Part shown: positions 666 through 51,477 of the stretch, one piece after another | How positions within the stretch are numbered: position 1 is the stretch's first letter | How the letters are laid out: each line of letters opens with the position of its first letter | NCBI GenBank assembly: GCA_025358205.1 | Contig: JANYKG010000082.1 | Coordinates: 551-64,550 of the forward strand | Length of the DNA: 64,000 nucleotides | Source of the DNA: Armatimonadota bacterium | Lineage (GTDB): Bacteria > Armatimonadota > UBA5829 > DTJY01 | Reading direction: 5' to 3' | Position numbers and translations under genes: made by a program | Notes under the pieces: model-generated | Told to the model about the DNA's origin: nothing | Seen by the model: only the letters and a program-made list of their open reading frames with translations | Database searches by the model: none

Positions 666-1712
666 GTGAAGGACAAGATTGACGTTGGTTTCATAGGCTG
701 CGGAGGTCACTCGTGGCGGAACGTGTTTCCGGCGCTGCAGTATTCGCCGGTGAATCTGGTGGCGACGTGTGACCTGGATGAGGAGAGGGCGTCTAAATTT
801 GCCCGGCAGTTTGGCGCGCTCAGGCATTATAGCAACCATCACGAGATGCTGGAGAAGGAGAAGCTGGACGGCGTCTTCATCGTCGCCGGGTACAACGACG
901 GCAAGATCATGCACGCACCGCTGGCGATTGACGTGATGAGGGCGGGGTGCCATGCGTGGATAGAGAAGCCGCCCGCTAACTCGGTTGCCGAAGTGCGGGA
1001 GATGATGAAGGTCAGCGAAGAGACCGGCAAGTTCGTGCTCGCTGGCTTCAAGAAGTGCTTCTTCCCGGCAGTGGAGAAGGCGAAGGAGATCACCCAGCGC
1101 GAGGACTTTGGCACACCTGCATCCATCTACACGCGCTACCCGATGGGTCTGCCGTGCGAGGAGGACCGGATTCAGAAGAAGGGGATGATGAACATCCTCG
1201 ACCACATCCCGCATCCCGGCTCGCTGCTGCGGTACTTCATGGGGCCGATTGAGTCCATCTACATCGAGGACGAACGGATGAACGGTGGCGCGTTTGTGAG
1301 CGTGAAGTTCGTGAACGGGTCAATCGGGATGCTGCATTTCACGGCGGGGCAGTCGGGCGTAGGTCCGCTGGAGCGGCTTGAGGTCATCGGCAAGGGCGCG
1401 AACGTGGTGATAGACAACGGCATCAAGCTGACATACTACAGGCCGGGGAGCAGGGGGCCGTATGGGGCAACTCCTTCGTTCATCGGGCCTGATGACGCTG
1501 CACCGATCTACTGGGAACCGGAGTTCTCGCTGGCGGTGCTGTACAACAAAGGCCTGTTCCTGGAGGGATTTGTGGGTGAAGTGACGTACTTTGCGGAGTG
1601 CGTGATGAAGAACGAACCGCCGAAGAAGTGCGGGCTGGACTACGCGCTGGAGATTACTAAGCTGTACGAAGCGCTTTGCGGGCCGTCACGGCAGATTATA
1701 CGTGTGGGATAG
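666..1712 (+). CDS. Gfo/Idh/MocA-family NAD(P)-dependent oxidoreductase
   Basis: GTG start at 666 preceded by GGGAGAG (653-659). The N-terminus has the Rossmann motif VGFIGCGGHSW typical of the family. Confidence 0.75.
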   Translation: MKDKIDVGFIGCGGHSWRNVFPALQYSPVNLVATCDLDEERASKFARQFGALRHYSNHHEMLEKEKLDGVFIVAGYNDGKIMHAPLAIDVMRAGCHAWIEKPPANSVAEVREMMKVSEETGKFVLAGFKKCFFPAVEKAKEITQREDFGTPASIYTRYPMGLPCEEDRIQKKGMMNILDHIPHPGSLLRYFMGPIESIYIEDERMNGGAFVSVKFVNGSIGMLHFTAGQSGVGPLERLEVIGKGANVVIDNGIKLTYYRPGSRGPYGATPSFIGPDDAAPIYWEPEFSLAVLYNKGLFLEGFVGEVTYFAECVMKNEPPKKCGLDYALEITKLYEALCGPSRQIIRVG

Positions 1713-1714
1713 GG

Positions 1715-1815
1715 AATGGTCAGGGACAATGGTCGGAGAGAATGGTCGGATGGTCAGAGAGATGCCGACGGTGGACAATTCTGACCATTTTGACCATAAT
1801 GACCATAACGACCAT
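1715..1815. repeat. iteron-like array of four direct AATGGTC(A/G)G units followed by four inverted (T/C)GACCAT units
   Basis: Direct units at 1715, 1728, 1741 and 1750. Inverted units at 1782, 1791, 1800 and 1809. The array lies between the oxidoreductase stop (1712) and the cupin start (1841). Confidence 0.6.
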
Positions 1816-1840
1816 CAGCGTTCGATAGCGGGGTAGAATC

Positions 1841-2197
1841 ATGGAAAAGATAGTCACCAACGTTTGTGATGCCAAGCCGGCGGTCTTCCCCTGGGGACGG
1901 ATAGCGTGGCTGCATAGCGGCGAGACCGGGGCGCTGGGTCTGACGTTTGGGGAAGTCATCATCAACCCCGGTATGTCGAATCCGATGCACGGACACCCGA
2001 ACTGTGAGGAAGTGCTGTACCTGATCTCGGGCGAACTCGATCACACCTACGGCCCGGACGAGGTTTTCCACCTCACGCCGGGGATGTCTATTCGCGTGCC
2101 TGCGGGTATCAAGCACAATGCGACGTGCACCAGTGCTGAGCCTGCGAGAATGATAGTAGCTTATGACTCTGCGTACCGGGAGATGGTGGGCGAGTAG
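1841..2197 (+). CDS. cupin-domain protein
   Basis: 118-aa ORF with the cupin motifs HGHPNCEEVLYLISGEL and PAGIKHNA. Confidence 0.7.
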   Translation: MEKIVTNVCDAKPAVFPWGRIAWLHSGETGALGLTFGEVIINPGMSNPMHGHPNCEEVLYLISGELDHTYGPDEVFHLTPGMSIRVPAGIKHNATCTSAEPARMIVAYDSAYREMVGE

Positions 2198-2371
2198 GTG
2201 TTGAGATACAAGGGATACGAGATAGTTCTTGAGCAGGGCGAGAGCGGCTGGATCATCGCCAGCGTGCCGGCACTGCCGGGCTGCCACACCCAGGGCCGGA
2301 CGAGAACTGAAGCTGTGCGTAACGCCCGGGGAGCCATCCGGGGTTACCTTGCCGTTATTCCAGAGGAGTAG
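2198..2371 (+). CDS. HicB-like (UPF0150) type II antitoxin-like small protein, 57 aa
   Basis: GTG at 2198 directly abuts the cupin stop. The translation MLRYKGYEIVLEQGESGWIIASVPALPGCHTQGRTRTEAVRNARGAIRGYLAVIPEE carries the HicB/UPF0150 signature (PxLPGC.TQG.T.EEA..N..EAI). It is absent from the ORF track because it is shorter than 60 aa. No HicA partner was found. Confidence 0.5.
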   Translation: MLRYKGYEIVLEQGESGWIIASVPALPGCHTQGRTRTEAVRNARGAIRGYLAVIPEE

Positions 2372-2635
2372 ACCTGGCAGAATTGCCGGTTTTGCGCAGA
2401 TGCCTTGACGGATCAGCTTGTGCTGTGATAAGGTGTGCGTGGAGATCAGAGATGAGATTCGCGAGTGTGAATAACTGGGCTTGGCGGTGGCATAGGAGAG
2501 TTTGACCACCGGCCAGGCGGACTGAAAAGTTTGATGGAATCATTGGCCGTGGGCAGACTCCAGTCGCTCACGGTCTTTCTTGTCTTAAGGGCCGGGGGCA
2601 TTGGAAGAAGCTCCTGGCCCGACGTATTTGGGAGC

Positions 2636-2704
2636 ATGGTCGAATGGCAAAATGGTCATATGGTCGGGATCATGCAGAGTGAGACCATTTGACCATCGGA
2701 CCAT
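2636..2704. repeat. second ATGGTC/GACCAT array (3 direct plus 3 inverted units) just upstream of the trpS RBS
   Basis: Direct units ATGGTCG 2636, AATGGTCAT 2651 and ATGGTCGGG 2660. Inverted GACCAT units at 2683, 2691 and 2699. The trpS RBS AGAGGGG is at 2711-2717 and its ATG at 2724. Confidence 0.6.
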
Positions 2705-2723: not shown

Positions 2724-3713
2724 ATGAAAAAAGGACGAATACTGACTGGCGACCGACCGACGGGGAAACTGCACCTGGGGCATTATGTGGGATCGCTTGA
2801 AAATCGTGTGAGGCTGCAGGACGAGTACGATCCGTTCATCATCATCGCAGACGTGCAGGCGCTTACCACTAACTTCGAGAAGCCCGAGGCGCTGAAGCGG
2901 GACGTGCATCAGGTTGCGGAGGACTATCTGGCGGTGGGCCTCGACCCTGAGAAGGCGACTATATTCGTTCAGTCGCTGGTGCCGGAGATCGCCGAACTGA
3001 CCATTTTCTACTCGATGTTCATCACGGTCAACGTTCTGCGGCACAACCCGACGATCAAGACCGAGGCGAAGCAGTATGGTTATCAGGATATGACATACGG
3101 CTTCCTCGGGTATCCCGTGAGCCAAGCAGCGGACATCACGTTCTGCAAGGCGAACCTCGTGCCGGTAGGCGCAGATCAGGTGCCGCACATCGAGTTCGCA
3201 CGCAAGATCGTTCGGCGGTTCAACGAGCTGTACAAGCCGGTATTGGTGGAACCGGAGGCGCTGGTGGGCGAGGTCGGCAGGCTGGTGGGGACGGACGGTA
3301 ACGCGAAGATGAGCAAGAGCCTGGGGAACTGCATCTACTTGTGTGACGAACCGAAAGAGGTGGAGCAGAAAATTTGCGCGGCAATAACCGACCCCGCGCG
3401 CATGAGGCGTGATGATCTGGGGCACCCGGACGTGTGTACGGTCTATGCCTATCACAAGGTGTTCAATCCGGGCTTTGTCGAGGAACTTCGGCCTCAGTGC
3501 GAGACCGCGGGCATCGGGTGTGTGGATTGCAAGAAACGTCTGACTGCCGAGATCAACGCACTGCTGGAGCCTATGCACGAGCGTCGGGCGAAGTACGTGG
3601 CGAAACCGAAGCTGGTTGACGAGATATTGATAGCCGGCACGGAGCGCGCCAGGGCGGCTGCCCGCGAAACGATGGCCCAGGTGCGAGAGGCGATGCAGAT
3701 AGACTATTTCTGA
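2724..3713 (+). CDS. trpS: tryptophan--tRNA ligase
   Basis: ATG 2724 with RBS AGAGGGG. Class I HIGH-type motif TGKLHLGHY and KMSKS are present. The 329-aa length is typical. The track ORF start at 2601 is an upstream extension. Confidence 0.92.
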   Translation: MKKGRILTGDRPTGKLHLGHYVGSLENRVRLQDEYDPFIIIADVQALTTNFEKPEALKRDVHQVAEDYLAVGLDPEKATIFVQSLVPEIAELTIFYSMFITVNVLRHNPTIKTEAKQYGYQDMTYGFLGYPVSQAADITFCKANLVPVGADQVPHIEFARKIVRRFNELYKPVLVEPEALVGEVGRLVGTDGNAKMSKSLGNCIYLCDEPKEVEQKICAAITDPARMRRDDLGHPDVCTVYAYHKVFNPGFVEELRPQCETAGIGCVDCKKRLTAEINALLEPMHERRAKYVAKPKLVDEILIAGTERARAAARETMAQVREAMQIDYF

Positions 3714-3842
3714 TGGTTGAAAACGATTGACTCTGTGCTCGCAAAGTTGAGTGTATTATTGCACTTCACTTTGGTTCGTGGTATCCTATTGGTATTACAG
3801 TGAAGATGCGCTGCATTGATATTAACCATAGGTGACTGCATT

Positions 3843-3920
3843 AGGCCGCATTATTCACAAAAAGCGTGAATAATGCTCAGAAGGCCCTGGATTATTCAGT
3901 TCATGAATAATCCAGGCTAG
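3843..3920 (+). repeat. double-hairpin intergenic repeat, copy A (CCGCATTATTCAC...GTGAATAATGC-TCAGAAGG-CCCTGGATTATTCA...TGAATAATCCAGGCTAG)
   Basis: Hairpin 1 runs 3848-3858 / 3866-3876, followed by the conserved spacer TCAGAAGG. Hairpin 2 ends in CTAG at 3917-3920. The copy lies between trpS and the GNAT gene. Confidence 0.7.
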
Positions 3921-5823: not shown

Positions 5824-5882
5824 AATGGCACGAAGGATGTGCGTTGTTCGTCCGTTCGTGCCATTCGTGTTTATTGTTTGTG
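5824..5882. terminator. putative bidirectional rho-independent terminator between the ABC ATPase gene (+) and rpmB (-)
   Basis: Perfect 11-bp stem AATGGCACGAA (5824-5834) / TTCGTGCCATT (5855-5865), followed by the T-rich tract CGTGTTTATTGTTTGTG. Confidence 0.5.
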
Positions 5883-6216: not shown

Positions 6217-6293
6217 CCCTGGCCTGCATTATGCACAAAGAGCATAATGCAGGGCCTTCTGAGCATTATTCACGCTTTTCGTGAATAATGCGG
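6217..6293 (-). repeat. double-hairpin intergenic repeat, copy B (reverse orientation, co-oriented with rpmB)
   Basis: Reverse complement reads CCGCATTATTCACGAAAAGCGTGAATAATGC-TCAGAAGG-CCCTGCATTATGCTCTTTGTGCATAATGCAGG. It lies in the divergent region between rpmB and the CBS-DUF1385 gene. Confidence 0.65.
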
Positions 6294-14242: not shown

Positions 14243-14311
14243 GTTAGGCGAGAGAGAGTAAGAGTAAGAGCAAGAGAAGCGAGTAAGAGAAACGAGAGAT
14301 GGTTGCAGAAT

Positions 14312-16966: not shown

Positions 16967-17075
16967 CAGAAGTTATCAGTGACCAGTCATCAGTTATCAG
17001 TTCGGGGCCGACGTGGTTGGTTGTATCGCTGCGTTGGCCTTTGTTCTTCTCTCAGCGTCCGGTGGAGGAAAACCG

Positions 17076-21860: not shown

Positions 21861-21936
21861 CCCGCATTATTCATAAAAAGCATGAATAATGCTCAGAAGG
21901 TTGCGGATTATGCGGAACATGCATAATCCGCGCTAA
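21857..21936 (+). repeat. double-hairpin intergenic repeat, copy C
   Basis: Sequence CTAGCCCGCATTATTCATAAAAAGCATGAATAATGC-TCAGAAGG-TTGCGGATTATGCGGAACATGCATAATCCGCGCTAA. It begins at the pilB stop codon. Confidence 0.7.
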
Positions 21937-23160: not shown

Positions 23161-23239
23161 TGGACCGCATTATTCATGAACAGCATGAATAATGCTCAGA
23201 AGGCCGCAGATTATGCGGGACATGCATAATCCGCGCTAG
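23161..23239 (+). repeat. double-hairpin intergenic repeat, copy D
   Basis: Sequence GACCGCATTATTCATGAACAGCATGAATAATGC-TCAGAAGG-CCGCAGATTATGCGGGACATGCATAATCCGCGCTAG. It starts 4 nt after the pilT stop. Confidence 0.7.
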
Positions 23240-24514: not shown

Positions 24515-24591
24515 CCCGCATTATTCACGAAGAACGTGAATAATGCTCAGAAAGGCCCTGCAATATGCCGGACGTGCATAATGCAGGCTAG
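24511..24591 (+). repeat. double-hairpin intergenic repeat, copy E (CTAG at both ends)
   Basis: Sequence CTAGCCCGCATTATTCACGAAGAACGTGAATAATGC-TCAGAAAGG-CCCTGCAATATGCCGGACGTGCATAATGCAGGCTAG. Confidence 0.7.
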
Positions 24592-30466: not shown

Positions 30467-33373
30467 ATGGATAGAAAAAGCCGAACTTCATTCTTCACCA
30501 ATATGGTAGTATCTCGGCGTGGGCAGACACTTGTGCTTGCGCTGATTATCCTGTTCATGCTGGTATTCCTGGGCGGGCTGTTCGTGACACTTATTGCGCG
30601 GAATCTGGCCCGAACCAGGCGCAGCGGCCAGACGTTGACCGCGGAATACCTTGCAGAGACAGGTGTGCGGTATGCCAGCGATCAGCTTACGTACAGTCTG
30701 GACGGCGCGGACTGGCGTCCGGTGCCGAACTACCCGGATGTGATAAGAAATCTGAATGGCGACAACATAACCACTCCGGTAAAGCCGAACCTATCTGACC
30801 CGGACTACGATTGGCTGACGAAGGGATATTGCCGATTCACGTATGGGGACGGTAGATTTCTCATCAGAGTAACTTATGAACCCAAGTTCGGTGATCCTAT
30901 CTCCAAGTACATCAAAATCGAATCCATAGGCCGTGTGGGCGTCGTGGACGAAAACGACCCTACAACGCTGGACCTGAAGCAGCCGCTACGCCTGAGAGCG
31001 GAACGTGTGGCGTACAAGGCTATCGGCATTACGGATTACTCCAGGTTCATCACAAATCAGGACAGGCGCACGGAGGCATTTGGCTTGGGCGTTCCGGCTT
31101 ACACTCAGCCCAACGGCTTGAAGCAAGCGTTCACCACTCAGTATGGTGACGTGAGTGACTATAACGGTGACACCATACCGGAGCCGCACGGTGGGTCAAT
31201 CCGCGTGAACGGCAACCTGACTTGGTACGGCAAGAACTTCATCTGGCTGGACGCTAAGCATAACGAGGCTGTGGAAGTGGCAGGGGATATCAGTCACGCT
31301 GTGGAGTGGTCCGGCGGCGGCAATGGCCCCACGCCGGAATCCACGATGGTGTACCTGAATCCTGACCGCACTATCTCAGGCTGGCGGACGAATCTTCTCT
31401 TGCGGCAGAGTTCTGATCCGTATTTTGATACCAGCACGGATAACCCAAGTGCGTCTGTGGGCGTGTATCGAGACGGTCGGCCCGAAGGTGATGTCGGCGT
31501 TACGATTGCCGGAGTTTTGCATCGCAGACCGCGCGGCATACAAAGGCTTGATCCGCCGCTGCTCGATGTTACCGGTCCGACAGGCGGCACGGGCAGATAC
31601 CGCGAACTCACTCGCAACTCCGGCGAATGGCTGCCCCCCGCATCTACTGGAGGCACGTGGTACAACACCGGTTTCTACGGATGGGGTAAAGGCCTGTACA
31701 TCAACAACCGAGACGACCTCCAGACCGAGTCTGATCTGAAGACGCTGAGGGATGATTGGATGAACCCCGGCGAATCGCAGAACTGGGTTGGACCGTACTA
31801 CAACCCGCCTGGAATAATCATGGTGCTTACGCCATATGATCTTGACAACGATGATGGCGATAATAACCCGATGACAGGCAAGCCGGACATCATTCTGATG
31901 GAGTCGAACACGTCAGGGGCGAAGTTCAACTGGTATGACAAGAACGGTGGCATCATTACACCCGGCGCCGGGCAGATGGTGATGCCCTATCCCGAGAACG
32001 GCATCATTTTTGCGGAAGGCAATATTCGCATCAAGGGTATGCTCGCGCCGCACAAACAGCTCACCGTGGTTTCGGCGGGTACTATCTATGTGGAAGGGAA
32101 TGTTCTGAAGTGCGGGCTTAAAGACGATGGCACTCCAATGCTGCCGACCGATCCTAAGGACAGCAGCATTGCGCTTCTGGCCACCGACTACGTTGCCGTG
32201 AATGCCACTCAGTTCTTCGGACCCGCGCCGGAGAGCCAGACTCCTGGTAGCTGGCGTCCTGAAATGGGCGGGTTTGATGCGTCGGTGGACCATCCGTTGA
32301 GTTTCGACTTCGCGTTCGGCATGGACCCGTCCGCATGGTATGGAACTATGCCCGTATGCGCGTATGTGCGTCATGCGGCGGACGGCGGCTCTGCTTACAT
32401 GAATATGACGGTCAACCAATTTGGCGCAGGGGCTGATCCGGGCGATCCCACTGATCAATGGTATGGCTTCTACAAGTTCGACATGCAGCCGTGGAGTACC
32501 CTTATTCCGCCTGCTCAGCCCGCGCGGCAGTACATCTACCCCATGGCGGATATTGATGCGGCGGCGACGGTGTTTCCGGTTCCGCCAAATAGCCCGACGG
32601 ATCAATCCAACCTTGTGGCGGTGCAAACTTACCCAATATGGGAGCATCAGGTCTTCACGATATTCCCGCTGAGTAACCCGCCCAGGCCGGATCAGAACTA
32701 TGCGCTGAATATCTTCCCCGGTTCCAGCAATCAGATCGGCTTCCGGCTGGATCAGAACATAGCGAAAGCGGATTACCTGCTTTCAAGGTTCGCAGTGCAG
32801 CCTTGTGACATTCGCGTGGAGGCGATGCTGTACGCTCAGAACGGGTCTTTCTACGTGATATCGGGTGCGCCGTTCAACCCTGATCCAGGCGACAGCAGAA
32901 ATGAGTTCCTGAAGGGGAACGCTGCCGTTTCGGGGAGGCTGGCACGCATGGGCATTGATGAGCGGTGGCCTTTCTATGGTGAGCCGCTGGATGTGCGTTT
33001 GATTATCAACGGTTCGGTGAGCGAGAACGTCAGCGCGCCGATAGCGGATCAAGCAGCATGGATGTCGGCGTGGGGGTGGATTCCGCCCTCACACGGATCG
33101 AGTCCACTGCCGGCGGATGAGGTCATCGGGTACCGGTCGCCTCTCGATCCTGAGAACTCGGAGACTGTTGCGGGCACTAGTGCGTTGCCTGTTCGTCAGC
33201 GTGGGCTATCCATCATCTACGATGATATGCTTTCGTACCCGAAGGTGCCTACTGTTGCCACAGATAGAACCAAGGACGTGCAGATCAGGCGTGATCTTTA
33301 TCTGCGGCCGTTAGCCGTTACGCCAAAGCTGCCGGTGAGCAGTCAGACAATATTCTTTGGCCGTCCCACTTGA
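30467..33373 (+). CDS. PilX N-terminal-domain protein, 968 aa
   Basis: The N-terminus RRGQTLVLALIILFMLVFLGGLFVTLIARNLARTRRSGQTLTAEYLAETGVRYASDQL matches the PilX_N pattern. RBS GGGGAGAAGG. The large C-terminal region has no clear homology that I can assign. Confidence 0.7.
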   Translation: MDRKSRTSFFTNMVVSRRGQTLVLALIILFMLVFLGGLFVTLIARNLARTRRSGQTLTAEYLAETGVRYASDQLTYSLDGADWRPVPNYPDVIRNLNGDNITTPVKPNLSDPDYDWLTKGYCRFTYGDGRFLIRVTYEPKFGDPISKYIKIESIGRVGVVDENDPTTLDLKQPLRLRAERVAYKAIGITDYSRFITNQDRRTEAFGLGVPAYTQPNGLKQAFTTQYGDVSDYNGDTIPEPHGGSIRVNGNLTWYGKNFIWLDAKHNEAVEVAGDISHAVEWSGGGNGPTPESTMVYLNPDRTISGWRTNLLLRQSSDPYFDTSTDNPSASVGVYRDGRPEGDVGVTIAGVLHRRPRGIQRLDPPLLDVTGPTGGTGRYRELTRNSGEWLPPASTGGTWYNTGFYGWGKGLYINNRDDLQTESDLKTLRDDWMNPGESQNWVGPYYNPPGIIMVLTPYDLDNDDGDNNPMTGKPDIILMESNTSGAKFNWYDKNGGIITPGAGQMVMPYPENGIIFAEGNIRIKGMLAPHKQLTVVSAGTIYVEGNVLKCGLKDDGTPMLPTDPKDSSIALLATDYVAVNATQFFGPAPESQTPGSWRPEMGGFDASVDHPLSFDFAFGMDPSAWYGTMPVCAYVRHAADGGSAYMNMTVNQFGAGADPGDPTDQWYGFYKFDMQPWSTLIPPAQPARQYIYPMADIDAAATVFPVPPNSPTDQSNLVAVQTYPIWEHQVFTIFPLSNPPRPDQNYALNIFPGSSNQIGFRLDQNIAKADYLLSRFAVQPCDIRVEAMLYAQNGSFYVISGAPFNPDPGDSRNEFLKGNAAVSGRLARMGIDERWPFYGEPLDVRLIINGSVSENVSAPIADQAAWMSAWGWIPPSHGSSPLPADEVIGYRSPLDPENSETVAGTSALPVRQRGLSIIYDDMLSYPKVPTVATDRTKDVQIRRDLYLRPLAVTPKLPVSSQTIFFGRPT

Positions 33374-51269: not shown

Positions 51270-51477
51270 CTATACGCAATTGAATAATGTCTGCCGTAGA
51301 CCGCAGGTGTTCACGGACTTAAGGGGTGAAGACCCGCCTGCCGAGGCTTGGAGCCGTTCTCGATATATTATGTCGAGTGCGTTTTTCTTGAAGCAAGGGG
51401 ATCCCCGGTGTCTACGGTGATCCCTTTATTATTTTATGGGGTGGGGTATATACCCACCGACCGAGGAGGTGAAATAC
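51270..51477 (+). promoter_or_regulatory. rplJ (L10) leader region with hairpins and a U-tract attenuator-like element
   Basis: About 200-nt untranslated leader. It contains CTCGATATATTATGTCGAG followed by TGCGTTTTTTC and a GGGATCCCCGGTGTCTACGGTGATCCC hairpin. This is consistent with an L10(L12)4 autoregulatory leader by analogy, which is an inference. Confidence 0.45.

Follow-up and report, generated by a model that had tools for sequence, protein, structure and literature searches.

The window analysed here, a 64,000-nt stretch of DNA from an Armatimonadota bacterium (contig JANYKG010000082.1), carries two intergenic arrays in which direct ATGGTC units are followed, across a short loop, by inverted GACCAT units; array 1 lies between an oxidoreductase gene and a cupin gene, and array 2 lies just upstream of trpS. 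Both very probably belong to the long-unit (7–9 nt) intergenic simple-sequence repeats that occur in convergent pairs. The best explanation overall, with a rough probability of 0.55 as a compromise figure for two components, joins this repeat class to a barrier function in RNA. The functional component, that the arrays act on the transcript as a structural barrier at a 3' end or between cistrons, is put forward tentatively, at somewhat below even odds. The arrays are most probably neither a specific protein-binding site nor a tryptophan control element of trpS. Positions below are window coordinates on the forward strand, and L-numbers denote fetched loci.

Two arrays of ATGGTC-then-GACCAT type had been described in the initial annotation, and both are present. 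According to sequence reading and hexamer counts, ATGGTC starts at 1716, 1729, 1742 and 1750 and GACCAT at 1783, 1792, 1801 and 1810 in array 1, while in array 2 ATGGTC starts at 2636, 2652 and 2660, the unit at 2644 being a degenerate ATGGCA, and GACCAT at 2683, 2691 and 2699. The unit counts are 4 + 4 and 4 + 3, respectively, and the period is 8–9 nt save for two 13-nt intervals. For array 1, the four direct units, the 24-nt gap and the 9-nt period on the right had been described correctly, whereas the left spacings are 13, 13 and 8 nt rather than 10–13 nt and the fourth right unit reads CGACCAT rather than TGACCAT. For array 2, the three GACCAT units at 8-nt spacing stand as described, whereas the loop measures 17 nt instead of 14 nt and the left arm holds four units if ATGGCA is counted. 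Array 1 starts 2 nt past the stop codon of the GFO/IDH/MocA gene (TAG, 1710–1712) and ends 25 nt short of the cupin ATG (1841). Array 2 ends, as had been noted, 7 nt before the Shine–Dalgarno (SD) core of trpS (GAGGGG, 2712–2717), with the trpS ATG at 2724, and the neighbours (a cupin and HicB-like pair, and TrpS) are also those given earlier.

The two arrays are the sole clusters of these hexamers in the 64 kb, and outside them ATGGTC (10 copies) and GACCAT (23 copies) occur near background, each against about 16 expected. Three GACCAT units at 8–9 nt spacing gave 3 matches in the window and 0 in 100 dinucleotide-preserving shuffles, and the arrays were also recovered by Tandem Repeats Finder (TRF). 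Between arrays 1 and 2 the hexamer is common, while loops, spacers, spacing and flanks all differ. The arms are complementary, and the long imperfect hairpin that had been thought possible is borne out by folding on either strand, with −42.2/−37.1 kcal/mol for array 1, −31.5/−30.6 kcal/mol for array 2, and z-scores of −3.0 to −4.8 against shuffles for both arrays on both strands. No T-run follows array 1 or array 2 and a terminator-like site was called at neither, so that neither is a canonical intrinsic terminator. The Rfam scan (whole window at the gathering threshold; 1650–2760 at E ≤ 5, with nothing credible) returned no family for the arrays or the trpS leader, and the literature search matched no paper to the exact repeat strings. 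As for integron attC features, the sequence beside the arrays has no GTTRRRY core, intI not having been searched for. A sigma-70-like match inside array 1 (TGGACA-17-CATAAT, 1772–1800) was rejected, as it is not above shuffle background.

The relatives compared comprise trpS neighbourhoods with TrpS 83–97% identical, together with one further locus reached through the cupin. At the site between the leader terminator and the SD of trpS, L120 and L122 carry ATGGCT/AGCCAT with a nested ACTCGT/CGAGTA hairpin, L127 carries TGGAGT/ACTCCA, L121 carries GAGTAAG/TTACTC, and L200 carries AGCACGAA/TTCGTGCT. At the site between the GFO/IDH/MocA and cupin genes, the units are GTGTGGGA/..CCCAC in L121 and L200 and GGGAGAA/TCCCTTTC in L122, and the pair GTGGGAGT/ACTCCCAC is also among the relatives' arrays at these two sites. 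Both window sites are ATGGTC/GACCAT, while the orthologous sites in relatives carry at least five unrelated units, and within single genomes several unit families are in use. In the alignment, the flanks (terminator hairpin and trpS start) are conserved and the array between them is hypervariable. Since unrelated units occupy orthologous sites, the hexamer is not the conserved property; what is conserved across relatives is the architecture and the complementarity of the arms. At one site, five or more different unit pairs have each regained complementary arms, and the same three intergenic sites are occupied in each genome that has arrays, as far as the site is examinable there, despite the sequence turnover.

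L122 and L127 have another array of this kind directly behind the trpS stop codon, L127 has one following an ADH gene, and the intergenic region at URO-D bears one in L122 and, upstream of the window, in the genome to which the window belongs (L001 3760–3990). When 12 arrays of the clade were folded, the energies ranged from −17 to −80 kcal/mol, and the G-rich arm came first in all 12. This arrangement is symmetric under reverse complement and therefore shows convergent orientation only; a reading of "G-rich arm first" as transcription polarity was rejected for the same reason. About 71 kb of the window genome holds 3 hairpin arrays (two of ATGGTC, one of GGTGTTA) and 4 direct-only arrays. The arrays are confined to the higher-GC lineage (GC 0.56–0.62) and are absent from L123, L129 and L130 (0.44–0.47) and from L125 (0.55); in L123, L129 and L130, the relatives of lower GC, the same trpS leader stands without an array.

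Several of these arrays show features of their own. The URO-D array of L001, about 3.3–3.5 kb before the window start in a divergent intergenic region, consists of GGTGTTA x4, a gap of about 100 nt and two TAACACC-type arrays; it is orthologous to the GGTGTT/AACACC hairpin array of L122 (7205–7282), so that the two genomes share a unit family at this site. Other gaps of the window hold direct-only arrays, which lack an inverted partner (14255–14296, 16971–17002, 32347–32377 and 5846–5869); they include GAGTAA-type units just 5' of a long alaS-like open reading frame (ORF), AGTTATC x4 just 3' of that ORF, and TATGCGCG and GTTCGTNCC units. Nested arrays, in which an outer hairpin (AGCCAT or CACAGAT) surrounds an inner hairpin of another unit (ACTCGT or ATGGTC), were seen in L122 (9828–9982), L120 (50–195), L185 and L194. 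In L121 (3445–3480), tandem ATGGTTGATGGTTGATGGCTAATGGGGG overlaps the trpS stop codon, and the window has a single ATGGTTGA at the same place (3705–3722), from which kind of single copy the L121 array appears, by sequence, to have grown. Moreover, a Fimbriimonas sp. (Armatimonadota; L006 6120–6160) carries a direct ATGGTCAGG array with a 9-nt period, three exact units and one degenerate unit, and no clear inverted arm; this 9-mer is identical to that of array 1 in the window.

Arrays of this type also occur far outside the clade and beside unrelated genes, which agrees with the earlier suggestion of a general repeat family that is not specific to trpS. A scan of the genome collection for three GACCAT units found period-8 intergenic arrays in Gemmatimonadales, Anaerolineae/Chloroflexota, Phycisphaerales, Bacteroidota, Verrucomicrobiota and other groups; variant octamers (GACTATCA, GACAATCA) are often interspersed in them, and in some cases there is an inverted arm. 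A metagenome scan for two ATGGTC, a loop and two GACCAT returned 69 stretches, against about 1–2 expected by chance (own estimate), and the GC content of these arrays ranges from 0.34 to 0.72. Among 58 unique arrays, the mode is 4 units per arm and the loops measure 8–35 nt. In units not forced by the search pattern, the hexamer is conserved at 86–98% per position, while the 2-nt spacers are variable and mostly unpaired (86 Watson–Crick pairs of 234, against 69.5 ± 6.5 in shuffles); as hexamers are kept and spacers are little complementary, the stems are 6-bp helices split by 2 × 2 internal loops. A de novo scan covering 1.33 Mb of fetched loci also brought up hairpin arrays of other units (ATCAGTG, TAGGTTC, ACAAGTA, TCGGAT, AACGGAG); counted by reading, about 12 begin with the G-rich arm and 3 with the C-rich arm. 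Viral contigs, scanned for both arrangements of the ATGGTC hairpin pattern, yielded 0 matches, which makes them unusable as a control for the hexamer.

The position of the arrays relative to genes differs from that expected in the initial annotation, which had anticipated a bias toward 5' regions: wherever it could be scored, the arrays abut stop codons, that is, gene 3' ends. In the set of relatives and metagenomes, there are 26 sides on which an array edge is no more than 20 nt away from a long ORF's stop codon, and stop codons stand 0–12 nt from the array. The gap between convergent genes is exactly filled by the array in L178, L154 and L136, and in co-directional gaps the array often spans the distance from the stop codon to the next SD (L163, L149, L127 19884). 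Array 2 is an exception in this respect, as it follows the attenuator terminator and not a protein-coding gene.

In the proposed mechanism, about four unit copies, a short loop and about four reverse-complement copies would give an interrupted hairpin of 6-bp helices with small internal loops. Such arrays originate and evolve through gain and loss of units, for which slippage would be the cause, and the selected property would be the stem-loop and not the hexamer; it can be argued that, since the hairpin architecture survives full unit replacement at fixed sites, the stem-loop matters rather than the sequence. On the model of cyanobacterial short tandemly repeated repetitive (STRR) hairpins and repetitive extragenic palindromic (REP) elements, the barrier might cause pausing or partial termination, protect against 3' exonucleases, or insulate neighbouring cistrons. 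Array 1 would be an intercistronic stem-loop between the oxidoreductase and cupin-hicB genes, and array 2 a stem-loop in the trpS 5' untranslated region (UTR), between the attenuator terminator and the SD. Periodic unpaired spacers would make a long palindrome tolerable, with neither cruciform or SbcCD-type instability nor RNase III cleavage, an argument from general knowledge of palindrome instability and of RNase III requirements. Sequestration of the SD by the stem base, with translational coupling through unfolding, was considered and rejected, the SDs lying outside the predicted stems.

Several observations weigh against a role as an RNA barrier. When the ATGGTC arrays were oriented by the adjacent gene, the sense strand folded more stably in 8 cases and the antisense strand in 12 (p = 0.54), and in the Armatimonadota set the sense strand was favoured by 9 to 3, which is not significant; the folding thus gives no significant sense/antisense asymmetry in favour of selection at the RNA level, and the arrays may instead have a function at the DNA level, or none at all. 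A strong terminator would do harm in a 5' UTR, the location of array 2, and a T-run is present at neither array. The direct-only arrays (window 14255, 16971 and 32347) indicate that the hairpin is not obligatory for the class. Furthermore, the hexamers are conserved above the spacers, which could point to a trans-acting factor instead.

Some of the same observations would fit a non-adaptive by-product, in which polymerase slippage or template switching at existing hairpins or gene ends produces arrays that are tolerated and functionless; we regard this as less likely, but as a serious rival. It would account for the complete unit turnover among close relatives, for the direct-only arrays and the missing strand asymmetry, and for the restriction of arrays to the higher-GC lineage with their absence from L123, L129, L130 and L125. 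Unit number is polymorphic as well: near-identical contigs (L154 and L173; L174 and L189) differ by whole units in both arms, and such differences between near-identical populations are a signature of replication slippage. Earlier work cited by Rehm et al. 2015 (PMC4692102) describes an excess of heptamer repeats in bacteria, for which polymerase slippage may be the cause. What speaks against a neutral by-product is that arrays persist at three intergenic sites through the turnover of their sequence, that five or more unit pairs at one site have recovered their complementarity, that hexamer positions are kept as spacers drift, and that the orientation is convergent in 12/12 arrays of the clade and in about 12 against 3 elsewhere. 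These patterns of persistence, complementarity and orientation suggest constraint, some of which a templated mutational mechanism could mimic.

The conserved hexamer could alternatively mark a sequence-specific binding array, ATGGTC being the unit for an oligomeric DNA- or RNA-binding protein that coats direct and inverted repeats of 7–9 nt. The initial annotation had favoured such an iteron-like, cooperative reading, which is not upheld here and is considered improbable. The conservation of the hexamer at 86–98% per position beside variable and mostly non-complementary spacers is what a binding site might show, and so is the use of one hexamer in both window arrays 900 nt apart, its reuse in single samples and genomes (9 contigs of Ga0207433; L156; a Gemmatimonadales metagenome-assembled genome on 3 contigs), and the GC range spanned by ATGGTC arrays. 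However, at least five unrelated units stand at orthologous sites and several unit families coexist per genome; the spacing of array 1 is irregular (13, 13, 8 against 9, 9, 9); that ATGGTC recurs in the collection scans is a consequence of how the search was designed; and the arrays sit at gene 3' ends and not at promoters. No DNA-binding gene is next to the arrays, whose neighbours are the oxidoreductase, the cupin, the HicB-like fragment and TrpS; the HicB-like ORF aligns only with positions 1–47 of 123 of its Pfam profile and has no DNA-binding domain. A bolder version, for which we would give equally long odds, takes the ATGGTC octamer (R-R-ATGGTC) for a cross-phylum recognition unit of an oligomeric nucleic-acid-binding protein or of a mobilisation system. 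If true, it would explain the constant hexamer from 34% to 72% GC with drifting spacers, its use in both window arrays and the many loci per genome, and lineages would differ in unit as the binder co-evolves with the repeats.

Dispersal as a non-autonomous palindromic element similar to REPINs or MITEs, moved by a transposase such as RAYT, is highly improbable. The intergenic position, the palindromic architecture and the many copies with related loops in some metagenome populations would be compatible with it, and the window genome does hold a separate REP-like palindrome family. Nevertheless, the window arrays are common only in the hexamer, they have no target-site duplications and no terminal motifs such as GTAG (nor a CGTC head), and the viral contigs gave no matches. 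Fixed orthologous sites with conserved flanks and variable content are also unlike insertion polymorphisms.

The separate palindrome family is AT-rich, ATTATTCA(Y)-N3-7-(R)TGAATAAT, with 6 copies in the window against 0 expected (3850–3874, 3891–3911, 6265–6289, 21866–21890, 23169–23193 and 24520–24544) and another upstream at L001 4079. It is absent from all fetched relatives, and one copy lies 5' of rpmB (L28). This palindrome may be either a dispersed hairpin of the REP kind or an operator of the Fur/Zur type.

The location of array 2 in the trpS 5' UTR beside the SD had led to the suggestion of an attenuation-like control of trpS. This holds for the locus, which has a leader peptide (2452–2505) and a terminator (2589–2620), and fails for the array; L123, L129 and L130 have the attenuator without the array. 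A control element made by the array itself, whether trpS-specific attenuation, a TRAP-like RNA-binding-protein element or a G-quadruplex/hairpin switch, is accordingly a very remote prospect, already largely refuted by the comparative data: arrays of this type also lie beside unrelated genes, the true attenuator is an element of its own upstream of the array, and both (G/U)AG triplet arrays and an Rfam match are lacking. The arrays of several relatives (for example L121, L122 and L127) do contain four G3 tracts, like the GGGAATC repeats that form G-quadruplexes (PMC4692102). Thus the G-quadruplex feature of at least four G3 tracts with short loops is found in some relatives' arrays and not in those of the window, where the G tracts are mostly GG, with two GGG runs in the array 1 arm and none in array 2; with so few G3 tracts, a canonical three-tetrad G-quadruplex is not expected for the window arrays.

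The element at 2452–2629 is, as predicted from sequence and comparative folding, a classical leader-peptide attenuator of trpS, the alternative antiterminator pairing being inferred by eye. The NWAWRW core of its leader peptide is conserved in 7 Armatimonadota genomes, with 15/18 bases invariant, and the −35 box TTGACG of the promoter-like sequence upstream is conserved in L122, L200, L123 and L129. RNAalifold of the leader gave 35 pairs, 6 of them with compensatory changes, in three conserved hairpins (Table 1). The lower-GC relatives have a clear T-run after the terminator hairpin: this was seen in the array-free L123, L129 and L130, while the array-bearing genomes (window 2620–2632, L120, L122, L127, L200) have a weak or interrupted T stretch there, a contrast that may be a mere effect of GC content. 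The trpS leader resembles trpL-type attenuators in its short ORF with three Trp codons, its alternative hairpins and its terminator 5' of a tryptophan-related gene; it differs in that it controls trpS and not trp biosynthesis, has three hairpins, and has no Rfam match in the scans given above.

Table 1. Coordinates of the arrays, the trpS leader elements and the surrounding genes in the window.
Feature	Position	Strand	Remarks
GFO/IDH/MocA oxidoreductase	666–1712		
Array 1, 5' arm: AATGGTCAG, AATGGTCGG, AATGGTCGG, ATGGTCAG	1715–1757	+	Unit starts 13, 13, 8 nt apart; TRF period 13, 2.8 copies
Array 1, loop/central region, 24 nt	1758–1781	+	Small internal stem in predicted fold
Array 1, 3' arm: TGACCAT x3 and CGACCAT x1	1782–1815	+	9-nt period
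Cupin	1841–2197		
HicB-like N-terminal fragment, 57 aa	2198–2371		
Promoter-like TTGACG-N16-18-(G)ATAAGGT, 5' of trpS leader	2405–2434	+	Inferred from sequence; −35 TTGACG at 2405–2410
trpS leader peptide ORF MRFASVNNWAWRWHRRV*	2452–2505	+	SD GGAG 2441–2444; Trp codons 2476, 2482, 2488
Leader hairpin P1	2481–2490 with 2506–2516	+	RNAalifold; spans second and third Trp codons
Leader hairpin P2	2545–2554 with 2565–2574	+	RNAalifold
Attenuator terminator hairpin GGGCCGGGGGC...GCTCCTGGCCC	2589–2620	+	GC-rich; covaries among relatives; weak T stretch 2625–2629
Array 2, 5' arm: ATGGTC, ATGGCA, ATGGTC, ATGGTC	2636–2665	+	8-nt period
Array 2, loop, 17 nt	2666–2682	+	Sequence and fold
Array 2, 3' arm: GACCAT x3	2683–2704	+	8-nt period
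TrpS	2724–3713		

Among the neighbouring genes, the HicB-like ORF has no HicA partner, and L122 and a closer relative have a full 73-aa HicB together with HicA at that position. Being short and without HicA where relatives have the full pair, the ORF of the window is probably a degraded toxin–antitoxin remnant. The arrays were also considered as borders of a mobile cupin-hicB cassette, which was rejected, as relatives keep the cupin with other arrays; it fails as well on an indel in L127 that deletes GFO-cupin-hicB and whose boundaries are unrelated to the arrays. Elsewhere, the sole Rfam match of the window at the gathering threshold is a ribosomal protein L10 leader (RF00557, 47.7 bits) at 51276–51439.

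Among known systems, the heptamer arrays of Xanthomonas and Nostoc (GGGAATC and GGGGA(C/T)T) described by Rehm et al. 2015 (PMC4692102) are intergenic, prefer four units and form 70–75 convergent inverted pairs per genome that are capable of stem-loops. A stop codon is overlapped or is no more than 50 bp away, and gaps between aligned ORFs are enriched in them; two species have them at the same intergenic sites, length and sequence vary extensively, and no function was identified (PMC4692102). The window arrays are alike in their roughly four units, convergent pairs, proximity to stop codons and hypervariable shared sites, and differ in their 8–9 nt unit, ATGGTC core, lack of a run of G3 tracts, Armatimonadota host and several unit families per genome. 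In cyanobacteria, STRR heptamers give rise to hairpins in the hupS–hupL gap and behind further genes, and have been proposed to function in transcript stability, translational coupling, and pausing or termination (PMC2670836). They share with the window arrays the tandem short repeats and a hairpin in an intercistronic gap or after a gene 3' end; their families are few and shared genome-wide, whereas window-type units vary from site to site, with other unit sequences in another phylum. The TAACTGA heptamers of Beggiatoaceae, Cyanobacteria and Bacteroidetes are intergenic in 2–6 copies, and a trans-acting binder was proposed for them and not found (MacGregor 2015, PMC4679880). They are similarly abundant, intergenic, short, tandem and cross-phylum, and differ in being almost all direct (with one indirect case), in lying just 5' of start codons and in consisting of one specific heptamer.

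The window arrays also resemble REP elements, including bacterial interspersed mosaic elements (BIMEs) and REPINs, as intergenic imperfect palindromes that are often in a 3' UTR or between cistrons. Part of the work on REP-type elements ascribes to them a stabilisation of upstream mRNA or a role in termination. They are single palindromes of 20–40 nt with a conserved head (GTAG or CGTC), in one high-copy family with an associated RAYT, whereas here the arms are internally periodic, the head motif is absent and the sequence is not shared among sites. Arrays bound by ribbon-helix-helix proteins, such as the 8-bp metboxes of MetJ and the 7-bp direct and inverted heptads of omega, are comparable in their period of 7–8 bp and in several units running direct and then inverted. 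Those arrays are contiguous and are located at promoters or centromeres, each regulon has a single conserved unit, and there is a cognate gene; in the present case, the units change at orthologous sites, a loop splits the arms, and the position is after stop codons.

An excess of intergenic repeats of 7–9 nt has been noted since the cyanobacterial STRR repeats, cited from work of the 1990s, and a 2007 survey of simple-sequence repeats cited by Rehm et al.; such repeats have no accepted function. To this known class the locus adds the phylum Armatimonadota and a unit that is not expected to form G-quadruplexes. Moreover, it provides a clean comparative observation that, at fixed intergenic sites, the hairpin architecture outlives complete replacement of the unit. 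For annotators, the arrays are a caution that such repeats should not be taken for operators or parts of riboswitches, and they are here set apart from the real trpS attenuator alongside them, a Trp leader peptide that is absent from Rfam.

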